From contig OZ242326.1 in NCBI GenBank assembly GCA_965208325.1, positions 928,001-992,000 on the forward strand: a DNA stretch of 64,000 nucleotides, written 5' to 3'. This DNA comes from Candidatus Poribacteria bacterium (lineage in GTDB: Bacteria; Poribacteria; WGA-4E; PCPOR2b). The notes beneath the pieces were generated by a model, which was not told the origin of the DNA, made no database searches, and saw nothing but the letters and a program-made list of their open reading frames with translations. Below are positions 57,477-64,000 of the stretch, piece after piece; position 1 is the stretch's first letter, and each line of letters starts with the position of its first letter. Position numbers and translations under genes: made by a program.

Positions 57477-57623
57477 TTTGTAGGTTGGGTTAAGCGATCA
57501 ACCGACCAAAAAGGGAGGGCGATAGTTCTAACCTTTAAAGGAACATCGCCGCATAAAAGCCATTAGCGCCGCACCTTGATTCCGTCTCAAATTCCTCATG
57601 GCGTAGCGAACCCAACGCTTTTC
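57477..57623 (+). repeat. 147-bp direct repeat, copy 1 (interrupted GTAGGTTGGG...CCCAAC REP)
   Basis: highly similar to 58121-58267. Confidence 0.9.
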
Positions 57624-57662: not shown

Positions 57663-57902
57663 ATGAACCGAAGCAACCATTACGTCAAGATTGTTGAATG
57701 GTCCGATGAAGACCAATGTTATGTTGGCAGTTGCCCAGGACTCTTTTATGGTGGATGCCACGGCGATAATGAACAAGAGGTGTTCGCTGAACTATGTCGC
57801 ATCGTTGAAGAGACGATTGAACTATATCAGCGGGATGCCAGACCCCTACCATCAGCGACATCCGGCAAAGACTACGCTAACAAGATGTTGGAATTTGCCT
57901 AA
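57663..57902 (+). CDS. hicB: HicB-family antitoxin-like protein
   Basis: Y..IVEWSDEDQCYVGSCPGL..GGCHGD...EV...L, PLP. Confidence 0.8.
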   Translation: MNRSNHYVKIVEWSDEDQCYVGSCPGLFYGGCHGDNEQEVFAELCRIVEETIELYQRDARPLPSATSGKDYANKMLEFA

Positions 57903-58120: not shown

Positions 58121-58267
58121 TTTGTAGGTTGGCTTAAGCGATCAACCGACCGAAAAGGGAGGGCGATAGTTCTAACCTTTAAAGACAAAACGCCGCATAA
58201 AAGCCATGAGCGCCGCACCTTGATACCGTCTCAAACTCCTCATGGCGAAGCGAACCCAACGCTTTTC
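58121..58267 (+). repeat. 147-bp direct repeat, copy 2
   Basis: highly similar to 57477-57623. Confidence 0.9.
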
Positions 58268-58858
58268 CCGCCGACAATTCATTTTGTAAAGGGAGCGGCA
58301 CCGCTAGGTGTCTCTCCCTTTTTTTCAGAGTAAAATCAGGAAGGGAACGCACTGGAAAATGGGCGATTTCCGGGAAAGCCGAGGTTGGTGGTTACCTTTT
58401 GTTGAATTGCTCCGGCCCGCTTGTGGTGCGGGTTCATTGAAATCGTGAGGTAACCAAAAGGTAACCAAGAAAAAAGATCTGTAAGTCAATTCAGCGGATT
58501 ATTATGCTAATATATTAGCATATTTTATAGGAGCGATTTAAGACTTTCGCGGGCAGTGGATCGAAGGGAATGTCAAGGCAATCGAGATGCTAAAGGGATG
58601 GTGCATTTTCCGGAAGCGTTTGGAAATGATGGATTTTCAATCTCAGGGAATGTGGGTTGGGTTAAGCCGCCGAATAGGATTAACTGAGCGGATAGCGAAG
58701 GATCAAGCGAGCGAACAGCGAGTGCGATAGTCTTCTCTAGTCTTCACTAGAAATATCCTCGCCCTTGTAAAACCTTACCATTACCCACAAGTCGTTGGAG
58801 GCAGACGCCGTCTCTGTTCGGGGTTAAGAACGATTGATCATTTCGGTATGGTGTACAT

Positions 58859-58932
58859 TGTGGGAGGGACATCCCTATCCCGATAATCAGGGCTAGGAAG
58901 CCCTTCCCACAGATGCTTCACAGCATGCTTAC
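58859..58932. repeat. REPIN-like element, inverted relative to 54376-54449
   Basis: direct sequence comparison. Confidence 0.85.
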
Positions 58933-59149
58933 GGTTATTTTACTTTCCCCCAATGTTTAGAGAGTTATACTTGTTCATTAAGGTGCAATTGCTAGGCAAT
59001 CCAGTGATTCTTCAACACCTTGGATTTTTGAAAATACACTTCGTGAGATGTTTTGGTATTGCTGAGCCTTATTTTGACTCATAACATGGCAGTTTTGCCA
59101 GCAACAAATCCACCTTAAGCCACTGTCTAGTTATTGGGAGTAATTTCAG

Positions 59150-59338
59150 CCAGGTGAGTTCTGGAAGCAGATGCGCGAATTCCCGACCTCCGAGCACAAC
59201 GACGCCCCCGACGCCGTTCAGGGCGCGCTTCGACAAAGAATCACCACCACCCCCAAGCAACGCGAACGCGACGAACGGCGTCGACGCGCACGCGAGGAGT
59301 GGTACGGCGAATACGGTCGCCCGGTCGTCCGTCTATAA
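59150..59338 (+). pseudogene. 3' fragment of a phage terminase large subunit
   Basis: PGEFWKQMREFPTSEHNDAPDAVQGAL resembles the terminase nuclease motif F..Q...FP...HDD.PDA; in-frame stop at 59141 just upstream; abrupt GC rise. Confidence 0.6.
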
Positions 59339-59478
59339 CCCCGGTATTTCCAATTCCGTATCAACAGAGAAGGAATGATACACCTCCGCGGAATCGGTAA
59401 CGCGACACACATCATCAACACCGCGAAAACCGTACCGTTAGCGGGCATTTAGGATTAACCGTCTCGTTTGAAATTAAT

Positions 59479-59507
59479 TTGACTTTAGATACTGGAGTGA
59501 GTATAAT
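59479..59507 (+). promoter_or_regulatory. near-consensus sigma70 promoter
   Basis: TTGACT-N17-TATAAT with an AT-rich upstream element. Confidence 0.85.
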
Positions 59508-59513
59508 TACGTA

Positions 59514-59856
59514 TAGTTTTTTTTAGAAACCCATTTTCCTTATTTATGCAGAAGGAACCCGGACGATGGCGATTTGTAAATGCTAAAAAACTAGGTTGTT
59601 CTGGATATCAACACTGGCGCAAGGTGAGTATGCGCTTTTGACGATAAGCTGTCCGCTAAATTGATGTGGAAACACGCCTACGCGCAAATGTTGATTACAC
59701 CAGGACATCCCGGTTGCATAACCGAGTCCCCTTTTCGTGGCCGGAGAAAGGAAAGCATATCCGAAAGCAATAAAGCGAAGTAAGCACAATCCATGACCAG
59801 ATGGTTTTCTTATATTGGACACGGACCACGATTCAAAAAGGGATCGTGGTTTTTTT
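59514..59856 (+). ncRNA. candidate large structured RNA of unknown class
   Basis: bounded by promoter and terminator; nested helices pair the 5' and 3' halves; no convincing ORF. Confidence 0.6.
59825..59856 (+). terminator. intrinsic terminator
   Basis: ACCACGATTC-AAAAAG-GGATCGTGGT hairpin plus T tract. Confidence 0.85.
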
Positions 59857-59970
59857 GTTGTCATTTATTGATATCCGCACCCGATAAATGGACCTCTCGC
59901 AGCTAAATATTAATTTTGAAATTCAATCCTTACGAAAGCCATACGCCTCCTGAAAACGGGGGAGTTTATC

Positions 59971-62202
59971 ATGAAACTAATCGAACCGATCCCAAATCCA
60001 GTCAGACAGAAGATACAGGGGTTACTTGCGCCCGGCGAAGATGAGCTAATCTGCGTATCTGCTGACGTGCGCGGCGATGGACGTTACGGATCGCGGTGGA
60101 TTGTGGTCACAGCCAAGCGCATCGTAATCACATCGGAAGATGCCGCTGATGATGTTGTACGCATACCCATTGAACAAGTCGCATCGGTGCGCACCGAACC
60201 CCTGGTCGGCGGCGTACGCTTGGAGATTGAGCGGAAGGCTAACTCTACCGCCTTTGTCCCGTACTCTAACTCCATGGCGGTGAAGTTCTCCGAAGTTGCG
60301 CGGGGCATTGAACAACTCCGCAAGCAGGAACCGTTCCAAATTGATAGTCAACTCGAGCGCACACGATGTGAAAAATGCGGCAGGCTGCTGCCTGAAAAGG
60401 ACGGCATCTGCCCCGCCTGCATTCAGCGATTAGCGACGCTGCGGCGAATCGGAAGCTACCTAATGCCCTATAAATGGCGTGCTGCACTTCTCGCAATGGC
60501 GTCTCTCATTGGAACGCTGACAGAGATTTTACCGCCTCTGATTACCCGACACATCGTGGACGATGCGTTGGTACCGGCGAAAGAATCGGCCATCGGCATG
60601 GAGGAACGGTTAGCGCTGCTCGGTTGGTTTGTGCTGGGCTTAGTTGGGGTGCGGGTGTTGGGTTGGGGTGCGGAATGGGTACACGGCTGGACGGTGACCT
60701 GGTTGGGCGCCCGCGTCACAGCCGATATCCGAAGCCGGCTATACCGGCAACTCGAGCTGCTTTCGCTGCAGTTTTATGATAAACGGCAGGTCGGCGCGGT
60801 GATGTCGCGCGTGACAAGAGACGCCGGCAGGTTACAGGACTTCCTCGTGGATGGCATGCCCTATCTGATCATCAACGGCTTGATGATTGTCGGCATACTC
60901 GTATTCCTGTTTTTGATGAGTTGGCGGTTGACACTATACATTTTATTGCCGATCCCGATTCTGCTGGCGTGGGGAGTCCTCTTCTGGCGGCGGATGCGCC
61001 GGTACTTCCATAAGTGGGATCAGCGATGGTCGGATCTCATGTCTACGGTGAACGAAACGCTCTCCGGTATTCGGGTGGTAAAGGCATTCGCACAGGAGAT
61101 TCGGGAGGTTACCTCGTTTAATAGACGCAATAAGGTGCTGCGGCGGATTGCCGTAAGGACGGAAATTAACTGGGAAATCTTTTTCGCCACATCGAGTCTT
61201 GTGACTAGTTTGGGGGTACTGATAATTTGGCTTTTCGGAGGGATGGAGATGTTCAAGGGCGAGTTTTCTATCGGTAAGCTACTTGCATTCTACGGCTTCA
61301 TGTGGCTCGTCTACGGTCCCATCCAATGGTTCGGGCAGGTCAACAACTGGATGACACGGGCGTTCGCCGGCGCCGAGCGAATCTTCGAGGTCATCGACAC
61401 GCCGCCTGAAGCTTACGACGATGCAGACGCCGTACCCATGCCCAACATTGAGGGCAGGATTGATTTTCAAAAAGTCACGTTTGGTTACGATAAGAGCAAG
61501 CCGGTGCTGCATGAAATTAATCTCGAAGTCACACCGGGGGAGATGGTAGGACTTGTCGGCAAGTCAGGCGTGGGTAAGACGACCACGGTGAACCTAATCT
61601 CCCGGTTTTATGACGTCGATCACGGCGCAATTGAGATTGACGGCGTGGATAACCGAAAAATCCGGTTGGAAGATTTGCGCAGCCAGATTGGTATCGTTGC
61701 CCAAGAACCTTTTCTGTTCAGCGGAACAATTTCTGAGAACATCGGCTACGGCAAACCCGGCGCAAGTTTTGACGAACTCATGGACGCCGCACAAGCCGCC
61801 AACGCTCACAACTTTATCGTCTCCAAGCCAGACGGTTATGATACGCAGGTGGGAGAACGGGGAAACAACCTGTCAGGCGGTGAAAAGCAGCGAATCGCTA
61901 TCGCACGCGCTATCCTCCACAATCCGAGGATTCTAATTTTGGATGAAGCGACTTCGTCGGTGGACGTGGAGACGGAAAAGCAGATTCAGGACGCCGTTGC
62001 TCGACTAACCAAGGGCCGCACCACCATCGCAATCGCCCACCGGCTGTCAACGCTGCGGAACGCGAGCCGGCTAGTGGTGCTTGATGAAGGACGCATCGTG
62101 GAGATAGGAACACACAGCGAATTGATGGAAAAACGAGGGGTTTTCTACGACCTTGTGCAATTACAGCGGCAGACGTCAGAGATTATCGCCGTGCAAGCGT
62201 AG
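59971..62202 (+). CDS. type IV ABC exporter (TMD+NBD) with N-terminal beta-rich domain and CxxC-x10-CxxC Zn ribbon
   Basis: RCEKCGRLLPEKDGICPAC; 6-TM domain; GKSGVGKT, LSGGEKQR, ILDEATS, IAHRL. Confidence 0.92.
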   Translation: MKLIEPIPNPVRQKIQGLLAPGEDELICVSADVRGDGRYGSRWIVVTAKRIVITSEDAADDVVRIPIEQVASVRTEPLVGGVRLEIERKANSTAFVPYSNSMAVKFSEVARGIEQLRKQEPFQIDSQLERTRCEKCGRLLPEKDGICPACIQRLATLRRIGSYLMPYKWRAALLAMASLIGTLTEILPPLITRHIVDDALVPAKESAIGMEERLALLGWFVLGLVGVRVLGWGAEWVHGWTVTWLGARVTADIRSRLYRQLELLSLQFYDKRQVGAVMSRVTRDAGRLQDFLVDGMPYLIINGLMIVGILVFLFLMSWRLTLYILLPIPILLAWGVLFWRRMRRYFHKWDQRWSDLMSTVNETLSGIRVVKAFAQEIREVTSFNRRNKVLRRIAVRTEINWEIFFATSSLVTSLGVLIIWLFGGMEMFKGEFSIGKLLAFYGFMWLVYGPIQWFGQVNNWMTRAFAGAERIFEVIDTPPEAYDDADAVPMPNIEGRIDFQKVTFGYDKSKPVLHEINLEVTPGEMVGLVGKSGVGKTTTVNLISRFYDVDHGAIEIDGVDNRKIRLEDLRSQIGIVAQEPFLFSGTISENIGYGKPGASFDELMDAAQAANAHNFIVSKPDGYDTQVGERGNNLSGGEKQRIAIARAILHNPRILILDEATSSVDVETEKQIQDAVARLTKGRTTIAIAHRLSTLRNASRLVVLDEGRIVEIGTHSELMEKRGVFYDLVQLQRQTSEIIAVQA

Positions 62203-62394
62203 CGTCTGTAATCCGCATTTTTACATTTACACTGTCATTGGCGAATTCTGGATACTGGCATCTTGGGGCTTAGCGCTTTTTTGAACAATAGGCGACCGTG
62301 CCATTCTTGGGCATTTGAGTTGGTATAACTGGTGGAAATTCTATCGCGCGGGATTTATTATCGCCTAAGCTATACGGTCAGTAGATCCAATTCA

Positions 62395-63185
62395 GTGTGC
62401 GCAGGGCAGGATGCCCAGCCTACAAGGCGTGGTGGTGTGCGCAGGGCAGGATGATTCGCCTACAGGGCCTAGTCGTGGGCGCGCGGAAAGATGCCGCGCC
62501 TACAGGGCCTGGTCGTGGGCGCGGGGAAAGATTACCCGCCTACAAGGCCTGGTCGTGGGCGCGCGGAAAGATTACCCGCCTATAGGGCGTGGTCGCGTGG
62601 GCGCGCGGCAAGATGCCGTGCCTACAGGGCCTGGTCGTGGGCGCAGGGCAGGATGATTCGCCTACAGGGCCTAGTCGTGGGCGCGCGGCAAGATGCCGCG
62701 CCTACAGGGCCTAGTCGTGGGCGCAGGGCAGGATGATTCGCCTACAGGGCCTAGTCGTGGGCGCGCGGCAAGATGACCCGCCTACAGGGCCTGGTGGTGG
62801 GCGCAGGGCAGGATGCCCAGCCTACAAGGCGTGGTGGTGGGCGCAGGGCAGGATGATTTGCCTACAGGGCCTAGTCGTGGGCGCGCGGCAAGATGCCGCG
62901 CCTACAGGGCCTGGTCGTGGGCGCAGGGCAAGATGCACCGCCTACAAGGCGTGGGCGTGTACGCGGGGAAAGATGCCCCGCCTACAGGGCGTGGTCGTGG
63001 GCGCGCGGCAAGATGACCCGCCTACAGGGCGTGGTCGCGTGCGCGCAGGGCAAGATGCACCGCCTACAGGGCCTGGTGGGCGCGGGGAAAGATGACCCGC
63101 CTACAAGGCCTGGTCGTGGGCGCGCGGCAAGATGCCGCGCCTACAGGGCGTGGACGTGGGCGCGGGGAAAGATGACCCGCCTACG
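62395..63185. repeat. tandem array of 20 ~40-bp REP-like palindromic units
   Basis: GCCTA(C/T) recurs 20 times at ~40-bp period; core GCGCGGCA-AGA-TGCCGCGC-CTAC is a GTAG-family REP read on the minus strand. Confidence 0.95.
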
Positions 63186-63204
63186 GAGGGTCGTGCCGTG
63201 ATAT

Positions 63205-63230
63205 GGGCTACCACAAGGGTTGCCCCTACA
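63205..63230 (-). repeat. single GTAG-family REP of a different type
   Basis: reverse complement TGTAGGGGCAACCCTTGTGGTAGCCC. Confidence 0.75.
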
Positions 63231-63409
63231 GAAAATGAATCCGATGCAGGAGCGTCGCGCTATACACTGCCGCCCTCAGGTGTCATTTTAAGGCAATTTT
63301 TTTAACAAGTTCTAAAGGTTAGTAATTCTATCGCACCCCACGAAAATGCCGCGTGTCTGCACGGCATTCAATCGTGCCAGCACAAACCGGCACCTATGGA
63401 ATAACAATA

Positions 63410-64000
63410 ATGCAACCGTTTATCGAATCGCCGCCTCCTGAGGTGGATGCGAAACTGCAAAGCGCGAAACCTTCGGAAGAACAAGTTCTTATCCAGGTCA
63501 CTGCAGATTTCTCCGATGACCAAGCATACGGGGAAAAGTGGTTGGTCGCAACCAAACTGCGCGTGCTGGTCGTTCCGGCTGACGGCGCCGTTGAAGAAAT
63601 ACGGCTCGACGCAATTCAGGATGTCAAAACCGAAGAGCTGGTCGGCGGCGGCTGCCTAGTCGTGGAACGTAAATCGGGCGCACCCGTCTACTTGCACTAT
63701 TCCAGCTCTTTAATTCCAAAATTCGCCGAGGTGGCGCAAGGAATTGGTCAACTCTCCAAAGGCAAACCGCTTGAACTGCCGACGGAGATGGAACGGACGC
63801 GATGCGATAAGTGCGGACGGCTGCTCCCGGAGAAAGACAGCAAATGCGTAGCCTGCATTAAAAAATGGCACACCTTAATGCGAATCCAGAGCTACGTTAA
63901 CCCTTACCGCGTTCAACTCACGTTTGTTGTGGTAATAACAGTGATTGGCGTGTTGATAAATTTGCTTCCGCCGCTAATTACTGAACGCATCATCGACGAT
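63410..64000 (+). CDS. paralogous ABC exporter, 5' part running off the window
   Basis: own translation MQPFIESPP...YGEKWLVAT...EELVGGG...KFAEVAQGI...ERTRCDKCGRLLPEKDSKCVAC...LLPPLITERIIDD aligns with the N-terminus of 59971. Confidence 0.9.
   Translation, partial: MQPFIESPPPEVDAKLQSAKPSEEQVLIQVTADFSDDQAYGEKWLVATKLRVLVVPADGAVEEIRLDAIQDVKTEELVGGGCLVVERKSGAPVYLHYSSSLIPKFAEVAQGIGQLSKGKPLELPTEMERTRCDKCGRLLPEKDSKCVACIKKWHTLMRIQSYVNPYRVQLTFVVVITVIGVLINLLPPLITERIIDD

Follow-up and report, generated by a model that had tools for sequence, protein, structure and literature searches.

A predicted noncoding transcription unit under selection ahead of an ABC exporter pair in one genus of Candidatus Poribacteria

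A 64,000-nt stretch of DNA from a Candidatus Poribacteria bacterium (GenBank assembly GCA_965208325.1, contig OZ242326.1), here called the window, was found to carry a segment bounded by a promoter-like site and an intrinsic terminator and placed directly before a pair of genes for an ATP-binding cassette (ABC) exporter. The window corresponds to positions 928001-992000 of a single-contig 4.7-Mb genome, designated G000. In a first-pass annotation the segment had been proposed to encode either an undescribed noncoding RNA or a cis-acting leader of the exporter genes, folded into a large nested architecture. The locus raises the question of whether the segment is a functional unit and, if so, whether its RNA is a final product or controls the genes that follow it. 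Comparison with related genomes indicates that it is a real, selected and previously uncatalogued noncoding transcription unit of narrow distribution. Both of the proposed identities survive, since no Rfam family matches the segment, it is conserved and selected, and the exporter pair does lie downstream, whereas the defined large nested architecture does not.

Conservation and extent of the unit

Homologs of the segment were found by DNA similarity in three congeners, at 90%, 74% and 73% identity; these congeners, designated G001, G002 and G003, make up with G000 four sponge-associated species of one Candidatus Poribacteria genus, in two clades, G000 with G002 and G003 with G001. The four-fold degenerate codon sites of the first ABC gene served as a neutral yardstick and are 51-54% identical between the clades. 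The whole RNA is 72% identical in the same comparison, with the identity unevenly spread along it: three blocks, termed I, II and III (Table 1), are 76-85% identical, which places them under purifying selection, and block III includes a nearly invariant 24-nt run. Among the variants listed for four metagenome runs, none falls in block I (59552-59615) and few fall in blocks II and III, while strain variants are concentrated in the apical rod and in the linker. Conservation in relatives had been proposed by the first-pass annotation as a check on its claim, and the homologs of the three congeners provide it, together with the signs of selection.

The promoter and the clean intrinsic terminator that had been recognised at the two ends of the unit are indeed present, and both are kept in all three congeners. 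The promoter is the sole sigma-70-like site in 58500-60500. Shuffled sequences average 2.5 such sites, thus the count alone proves nothing, and it is conservation that constitutes the evidence: the homologous sites of G001, G002 and G003 score 10-11 of 12, and the -10 box TATAAT is invariant in the four-genome alignment. The terminator hairpin, with an energy of -16.4 kcal/mol in G000, is found in 4/4 genomes, and the predicted RNA is 343-345 nt long. Transcription of the unit would be expected from these signals; the 22 listed public runs that carry the locus include no RNA dataset.

The 31-codon ATG open reading frame (ORF; 59546-59641) that had been named as the best one on the sense strand, without a ribosome-binding site, is present, but a 40-codon TTG ORF (59661-59783), a 37-codon ATG ORF and a 6-codon ORF preceded by AAGGA exist as well; the last two are here designated uORF2 and uORF1, respectively, for upstream ORFs. 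As genes, the 31-, 40- and 37-codon ORFs of the + strand and a 93-codon ORF of the - strand, the latter intact only in G000 and G002, were rejected, each being broken or absent in G003 or G001. Neither the 93-codon ORF nor the 37-codon ORF belongs to a Pfam family. As the blocks are selected and 1-nt indels interrupt the longer ORFs in G003 and G001, the unit is functional and for the most part noncoding.

Parts of the two short frames are nevertheless kept. The start codon of uORF1 and its AAGGA-N9 occur in 4/4 genomes, and this AAGGA, at 59552, marks the exact beginning of the conserved core. The peptides encoded are MAICKC, MAICEC, MLICKCKKAR and MAICKCKKAR, and this variation indicates that the peptide sequence is not what is selected. 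The ATG of uORF2, located inside the hairpin of block III, is likewise found in 4/4 genomes, and all four encode MTRWFSYI; the first eight codons differ by three substitutions, all of them synonymous, and the sequences diverge after codon 8. That 3/3 of these substitutions fall in third positions has, by a rough estimate, a chance probability of a few per cent and is only suggestive. Depending on the genome, uORF2 comprises 10 to 37 codons, running through the terminator stem in three genomes and stopping at its foot in G001, and a U-rich tract (TGG TTT TCT TAT ATT) lies immediately 5' of the stem. Both frames may be translated.

The distribution of the unit was examined with a covariance model of the RNA core, R1, which covers 59554-59755 and was built from the four homologs. 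R1 is weak at larger distances because these are four close sequences (effective sequence number 1.08), and for all genomes beyond the genus a negative result is consequently worded as not found. With R1 the unit was found in all four species of the genus, in one copy per genome, and was not found in the 25 other genomes of the family, so that the 4 positives among 29 family genomes all belong to one genus. In a 151-genome sample of the phylum R1 matched five genomes; the fifth match, the only one among the 147 other phylum genomes, scores 20.6 bits, sits within a 433-aa coding ORF and was rejected as chance. With the filters off, the top R1 score at 19 of the 26 non-congener ABC loci was 10.8 bits. 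A DNA similarity search of 60 relatives gave matches only in the three congeners (0/57 genomes outside the genus), and nhmmer with the full alignment against the upstream parts of all 30 ABC loci matched only the four congeners. A pattern scan of genomes returned the three congeners and one alphaproteobacterial metagenome-assembled genome, the latter judged a chance match; of two pattern scans of metagenomes the first gave no match and the second five, none of them matching R1. Contigs of two public sponge-metagenome runs hold the element from 59552 on, with 8 and 9 differences in 439 nt.

Orthologous ABC genes do occur in the other genera of the family, at 68-76% identity. Their upstream regions contain a divergent gene and a conserved -10-like box of their own; in most of them no T-run shortly precedes the gene, and a homolog of the RNA was found in none. 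This makes the unit an add-on to the operon within one genus.

No RNA family of Rfam accounts for the unit. The first-pass annotation had seen no hallmarks of tmRNA, RNase P, SRP, T-box or common riboswitches, and the scan with Rfam 15, which includes these families and 6S RNA, gave no match at the gathering score in the whole 64-kb window, so that a divergent 6S RNA was not matched either. A permissive scan of 59300-60000 (E <= 10) gave chance-level matches only, for instance to eukaryotic snoRNAs and lncRNAs, and the homologous RNAs of G001-G003 gave nothing at E <= 1. Recurrence upstream of related genes in diverse taxa, by which riboswitches are recognised, was not seen, the element being found in one genus only. 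A sponge of the CsrB/RsmZ type was also considered and rejected: GGA occurs 10 times in G000 and in G002 (P ~0.02), 7 times in G003 and 6 times in G001 (P 0.3-0.4), and the G000 genome has no match to CsrA above the family cut-off. For Hfq it contains only sub-threshold matches inside long ORFs. The literature search disclosed no paper on Poribacteria RNAs or on RNA-based regulation in this uncultivated phylum. For 'Poribacteria-1', the name of an RNA motif, no paper was found, nor did the locus match a Rfam family under this or another name.

Table 1 Features of the unit and of the exporter genes that follow it. Positions are those of the window; identities are between the two clades unless indicated.
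Feature	Position	Strand	Remarks
Sigma-70-type promoter, TTGACT-17-TATAAT	59479..59507	+	11/12 positions match; A/T-rich stretch 5' of the site
Variable 5' segment	59512..59550	+	first ~40 nt 50-60% identical, about neutral; 40-60% among the four genomes
Predicted primary transcript, ~343 nt	59514..59856	+	start predicted from the -10 box, end from the T-run of the terminator
Conserved block I	59551..59613	+	81-84% identical; SD-like (Shine-Dalgarno-like) AAGGA, uORF1, 5' strand of rod base
uORF1, MAICKC*	59566..59586	+	6 codons; SD-like AAGGA 9 nt upstream
Apical rod	59614..59680	+	54-63% identical, about neutral; includes GTG-GAAA-CAC hairpin
Conserved block II	59681..59758	+	76-83% identical; 3' strand of rod base, predicted long-range partner of block I
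Linker	59759-59785	+	46-56% identical, about neutral
Conserved block III	59786..59852	+	85% identical; CCAT-GACCAG-ATGG hairpin, U-rich tract, terminator
uORF2, MTRWFSYI…	59793..59906	+	37-codon ATG ORF running into and through the terminator stem
Intrinsic terminator	59823..59856	+	12-bp stem, 6-nt loop, T7; stem-loop 59823-59852, T-run to 59856
Small hairpin pairing part of the ABC Shine-Dalgarno sequence	59947..59964	+	flagged sequence CTCCTGAAAACGGGGG; just before the ABC start codon
ABC exporter subunit 1	59971..62202	+	bPH-like and zinc-ribbon-like N-terminus (weak matches), then ABC_membrane, ABC_tran
ABC exporter subunit 2, start	63353..64000	+	runs off the window end; shares 90% identity with subunit 2 of G002 (754 aa)

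Predicted folding of the RNA

The fold drawn for this RNA in the first-pass annotation was an accurate description of one genome. All the helix strands quoted are where it had placed them, and the 72 pairs derived from them are all canonical in G000. The minimum-energy fold of the + strand of G000, which is predicted to be branched, has -100.2 kcal/mol, and none of 100 dinucleotide shuffles is as stable (z = -3.22; -1.46 for the - strand).

The same architecture was not recovered in the homologs. Imposed on the four sequences, the nested fold leaves 82.9% of cells paired, against 82.7% after shuffling, and 229/500 shuffles reach this value. The two outer closing helices, which were to join the 5' and 3' halves of the RNA, have only 64-69% of cells paired, and the four CGGA/TCCG pairs of the next helix (CGGA..ATG with CAT.TCCG) are broken or changed in G003 and G001; RNAalifold pairs the CGGA..ATG strand with TCGTGGCCGG in block II instead. 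The 117-nt rod is stable only in G000 (z -4.2, versus -0.7 in G002, -0.4 in G003 and -1.2 in G001). Its tip, described as a GNRA loop, belongs to an apical half that evolves about neutrally; in all four genomes the stability of this half does not exceed that of shuffled sequence (z +0.3 to -0.2), and only G000 and G002 have the GAAA loop. For the core as a whole (alignment columns 51-236) the z-score is -2.9 in G000 and then -1.8, -0.7 and -0.15 in the homologs, and the minimum-energy folds of the four homologs all differ from one another. The elaborate architecture thus belongs for the most part to G000 alone.

An RNAalifold consensus pairs 96.4% of cells, includes four pairs changed on both sides and is reached by 13/500 shuffles, although it was derived from the very four sequences on which it was scored. 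If the consensus pairs are imposed, each genome loses 17-35 kcal/mol against its minimum free energy, the highest value being that of G003. Helices 2-6 of this consensus connect blocks I and II and contain one compensatory pair, at columns 75/208. These long-range helices between blocks I and II may be real, and so may the invariant rod base formed by CAACA/TGTTG and CTGG/CCAG, as well as the small hairpin of block III and the terminator. The best duplex of the 5' segment with block III has z-scores of -2.0 in G000, -3.2 in G002, -3.2 in G003 and +0.95 in G001, and in G002 this pairing is predicted despite an unrelated 5' sequence. Covariation, by which the first-pass annotation had meant its helices to be checked, gave nothing usable from four sequences.

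Possible control of the exporter genes or an RNA of its own

The element is tentatively read as a lineage-specific, terminator-bearing 5' leader, that is, an attenuator, of the ABC exporter operon, a reading to which we give a little less than an even chance. Its fixed position supports it: in 4/4 genomes the RNA is flanked on one side by the 3' end of a + strand gene and on the other by the exporter pair, always directly before the same two genes and co-oriented with them. That the RNA was not found before the orthologous ABC genes of other genera, and that both short frames keep their start codons in 4/4 genomes, likewise favours a leader. Between the terminator and the ABC start, no promoter-like site of at least 9/12 was found in G000 and G002, and G003 and G001 have only a 9/12 site there.

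According to the leader reading, the near-consensus promoter would fire constantly and most transcripts would end at the terminator, yielding the ~343-nt RNA, while a regulated fraction would read through the remaining ~114 nt into both ABC genes; this read-through, like the nature of the signal, we infer. The decision to terminate may be made by ribosomes on the short reading frames. As the start of uORF2 is 30 nt ahead of the terminator stem and the frame extends into it, a ribosome close behind the polymerase would block the hairpin. This start lies inside the small hairpin and could be covered by the 5' end of the RNA; how accessible it is would depend on how blocks I and II fold, and perhaps on translation of uORF1. 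An antiterminator may be formed as well, since the 5' strand of the terminator has a partner in block II with -16.8 kcal/mol in G000 and -18.7 kcal/mol in G002, versus the -16.4 kcal/mol of the hairpin; such a structure is credible only in these two genomes.

Control of this kind has precedents. The pyrBI leader is a classical case of a ribosome behind the polymerase masking a terminator. As in terminator-masking leaders, an ORF here runs into the stem, namely uORF2, which ends at the foot of the stem in G001, and a U-rich tract comes right before the stem; unlike in leaders of the pyrBI type, there is no link to nucleotide metabolism, and uORF2 has no SD-like sequence in 2/4 genomes. Repression of a terminator by ribosomes close to it has been measured for tR2 in E. 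coli (PMC4824070). A heterodimeric ABC exporter of Bacillus subtilis, BmrCD, is reported to be under the control of a leader ORF with an intrinsic terminator inside it (PMC4191407). With this bmrB leader, which exerts ribosome-mediated transcriptional attenuation on bmrBCD, the present unit has in common a short ORF upstream of a heterodimeric ABC pair, an intrinsic terminator in or at the end of the ORF, co-orientation with the transporter genes and no obvious second promoter. The two have no sequence relationship, and the present leader differs in its length of ~343 nt, in having two very small ORFs and three long blocks conserved at the RNA level, and in an exporter of a different subfamily, with a bPH and zinc-ribbon N-terminus; in addition the bmrB switch is defined there by alternative stem-loops, and conservation of such stems could not be demonstrated here. 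The mgtCBR leader of Salmonella (PMC3641672) is reported to be likewise ~300 nt long, with two short ORFs, and precedes a membrane transport operon. It shares no homology with the present element, belongs to another organism and another transporter class, and no counterpart of its alternative stem-loops was shown here.

Several observations weigh against a leader. All four genomes are syntenic on both sides of the unit, for which reason the adjacency to the ABC genes amounts to a single observation, and the spacer from the terminator to the ABC start, 114-135 nt in the other three genomes, is ~387 nt in G001. The terminator is very strong, with its 12-bp stem and T7-8 tail, like the end of a free-standing RNA gene. 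The best partners of its 5' strand in G003 and G001, at -14.5 and -12.9 kcal/mol, do not stand out from the background of -12 to -14 kcal/mol and involve different pairs, and the only conserved alternative stems touching the terminator are 5-8 bp long, the longest consisting mostly of G-U pairs. Substitutions in uORF1 are mostly non-synonymous, and its stop shifts (6 versus 10 residues). Before uORF2, an SD-like AGGGA/AGGAA is found only in G003 and G001, with none in G000 and G002; the synonymous sites of uORF2 carry no fixed difference between the clades, which points to a constraint acting chiefly on the RNA. Of the metagenome contigs, one is frameshifted in uORF2 by a 1-nt deletion at 59803, and in a second one a Trp codon of this frame is changed to Leu. 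Finally, three RNA-level blocks of 60-80 nt in a leader of 340 nt exceed what a simple uORF attenuator needs.

Several of these points suit a stand-alone gene for a trans-acting small RNA (sRNA), of which the ~343-nt RNA would be the final product, its blocks binding mRNAs or proteins elsewhere and its adjacency to the ABC genes being an accident of synteny. This is quite possible, if on balance doubtful. It would explain why the near-consensus promoter and the very strong terminator are both kept in 4/4 genomes, why conservation takes the form of long RNA-level blocks and not of codons, why no convincing conserved antiterminator was found and why G001 tolerates ~270 nt of extra sequence between the RNA and the ABC gene. 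Like many sRNA genes, the unit has its own promoter and terminator, occurs in a single copy within one genus and is conserved block by block; unlike most of them it is larger, always precedes a gene apparently without a promoter of its own (G000 and G002 having no promoter-like site downstream of the terminator), and has no known target or chaperone. The failure of Hfq and CsrA to score above the cut-offs in the genome counts weakly against an sRNA, since neither protein is required for sRNAs to act. In the region of the ABC translation start, the only target candidate tried, complementarity did not go beyond chance (z +0.08, -1.0, -0.8 and +0.9), and the very first nucleotides of the conserved core are an SD-like sequence followed by an ATG, as would befit a leader.

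A bolder version of the leader reading, which we regard as improbable, takes blocks I and II for a large sensor domain of a new type, with a ligand or a protein as its binding partner, which would set the translation of the terminator-spanning mini-ORF and thereby gate an exporter of the cyanophycin-associated type in sponge-symbiotic Poribacteria; alternatively, the RNA might be an abundant, symbiont-specific one acting outside the cell that produces it. If true, the sensor would represent a new regulatory RNA class in which an aptamer-like domain is coupled to ribosome-mediated antitermination.

Hardly likely is that the RNA serves as mRNA for one or two tiny peptides, or as a dual-function RNA, a peptide of the MAICKC or MTRWFSYI… type being perhaps a substrate or regulator of the exporter. 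Both start codons, the AAGGA of uORF1 and the purely synonymous changes in the first eight codons of uORF2 would agree with this. The residues of uORF1 change, however (A to L, K to E), as does its length; uORF2 diverges after codon 8, ranges in length from 10 to 37 codons, is frameshifted in one metagenome contig and lacks a Pfam match; the greater part of the conserved sequence lies outside both ORFs; and 1-nt indels in G003 or G001 disrupt the longer ORFs of either strand.

Equally slight is the chance of a decaying or selfish remnant, whether of a mobile element or of an old leader, that is still transcribed and has no present function. In G000 the surroundings are full of repeats and include a truncated gene, and the first 40 nt of the RNA seem to have been exchanged between lineages, but the high identity of the three blocks relative to neutral sites, the lack of any listed variant in block I with few in blocks II and III while the linkers vary, the promoter and terminator of all four genomes and the single copy of the element all speak against decay.

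A highly divergent 6S RNA, or another housekeeping RNA missed by the Rfam models in this phylum, is very unlikely indeed: the strong promoter, the putative abundance and the pairing of the 5' end near the 3' end that is possible in 3/4 homologs recall 6S RNA, and all 29 family genomes, G000 among them, are without a match to the Rfam 6S model, so that the 6S RNA of the clade, if any, was not located and the lack of a 6S match at this locus says nothing either way, but the RNA is about twice as long as the 187-position model (RF00013), is predicted to be branched in place of a single ~180-nt rod with a central bubble, has a rod whose stability is not conserved, and belongs to one genus, with 0/25 matches in the other family genomes and no real match in the 147 other phylum genomes, at which distance R1 is weak, while RNase P, tmRNA and SRP RNA were all detected elsewhere in the G000 genome.

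Surroundings of the element and its significance

Downstream of the unit, the pair of zinc-ribbon ABC exporter genes announced by the first-pass annotation is present, with the domains ABC_membrane and ABC_tran following a bPH and zinc-ribbon N-terminus. The best NCBIfam match of the ABC genes is NF052233, a cyanophycin metabolism-associated ABC transporter; subunit 1 scores 642.9 bits, under the cut-off of 880, and the second ABC subunit of G002 also matches this profile. In the small hairpin just before the first ABC gene, one pair is C-G in G000, U-G in G003 and U-A in G001, as judged by eye from the alignment. The ~270 nt that G001 has in addition between the terminator and this gene have no counterpart in the other three genomes and contain no obvious gene.

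Between the two ABC genes, G000 alone carries a GC-rich insert of ~1 kb (62273-63311; GC 0.67-0.72 versus ~0.5 around it), which is a tandem array (62395-63184) in which a 40-nt unit is repeated 19.7 times with 81% matches. The ABC genes of G002 are ~130 nt apart and have no such insert. If the two genes are co-transcribed, the array of G000 now sits inside an operon.

Upstream of the unit lies a gene of 629-663 aa in G003 and G002 that belongs to no Pfam family; in G000 only its last ~190 nt are left, from which it follows that the RNA does not depend on that gene. Most of it is replaced in G000 by the repeat-rich segment 57440-58741, which has no ORF of at least 90 aa and contains several copies of a GTAGGTTGGGT…GATCAAC-type unit as well as a 147-nt direct repeat (57477-57623 and 58121-58267, 93% identical). 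Pieces of 33-51 nt related to these repeats were found in G001 and G003. A 79-aa ORF among the repeats (57663-57902, + strand) vaguely recalls a small antitoxin-like protein, but it matches no Pfam family at E <= 0.01.

The 5' ~40 nt of the element (59512-59551) have a history of their own. In this stretch G000 resembles G003 and G001, and the version of G002 is unrelated, although G002 is 92% identical to G000 from 59552 onward. Contigs of the metagenome runs X5, X6 and X8 likewise carry a 5' segment unrelated to that of G000, and their likeness to G000 starts at 59552, with 8, 9 and 1 differences, respectively. This pattern suggests that the 5' segment was swapped between lineages by recombination with a breakpoint at 59552.

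Most probably the element adds a new example to a known kind of control. The claim is one from sequence conservation; it is useful for the annotation of these genomes and is not a general advance. Should the RNA prove to be a trans-acting sRNA, it would be a candidate for an abundant RNA of a symbiont. If it is instead the leader of the exporter operon, it would add one more heterodimeric ABC exporter to those under a terminator-based switch, in this case one acquired recently in a single genus, and it would offer a handle on what this exporter family responds to.

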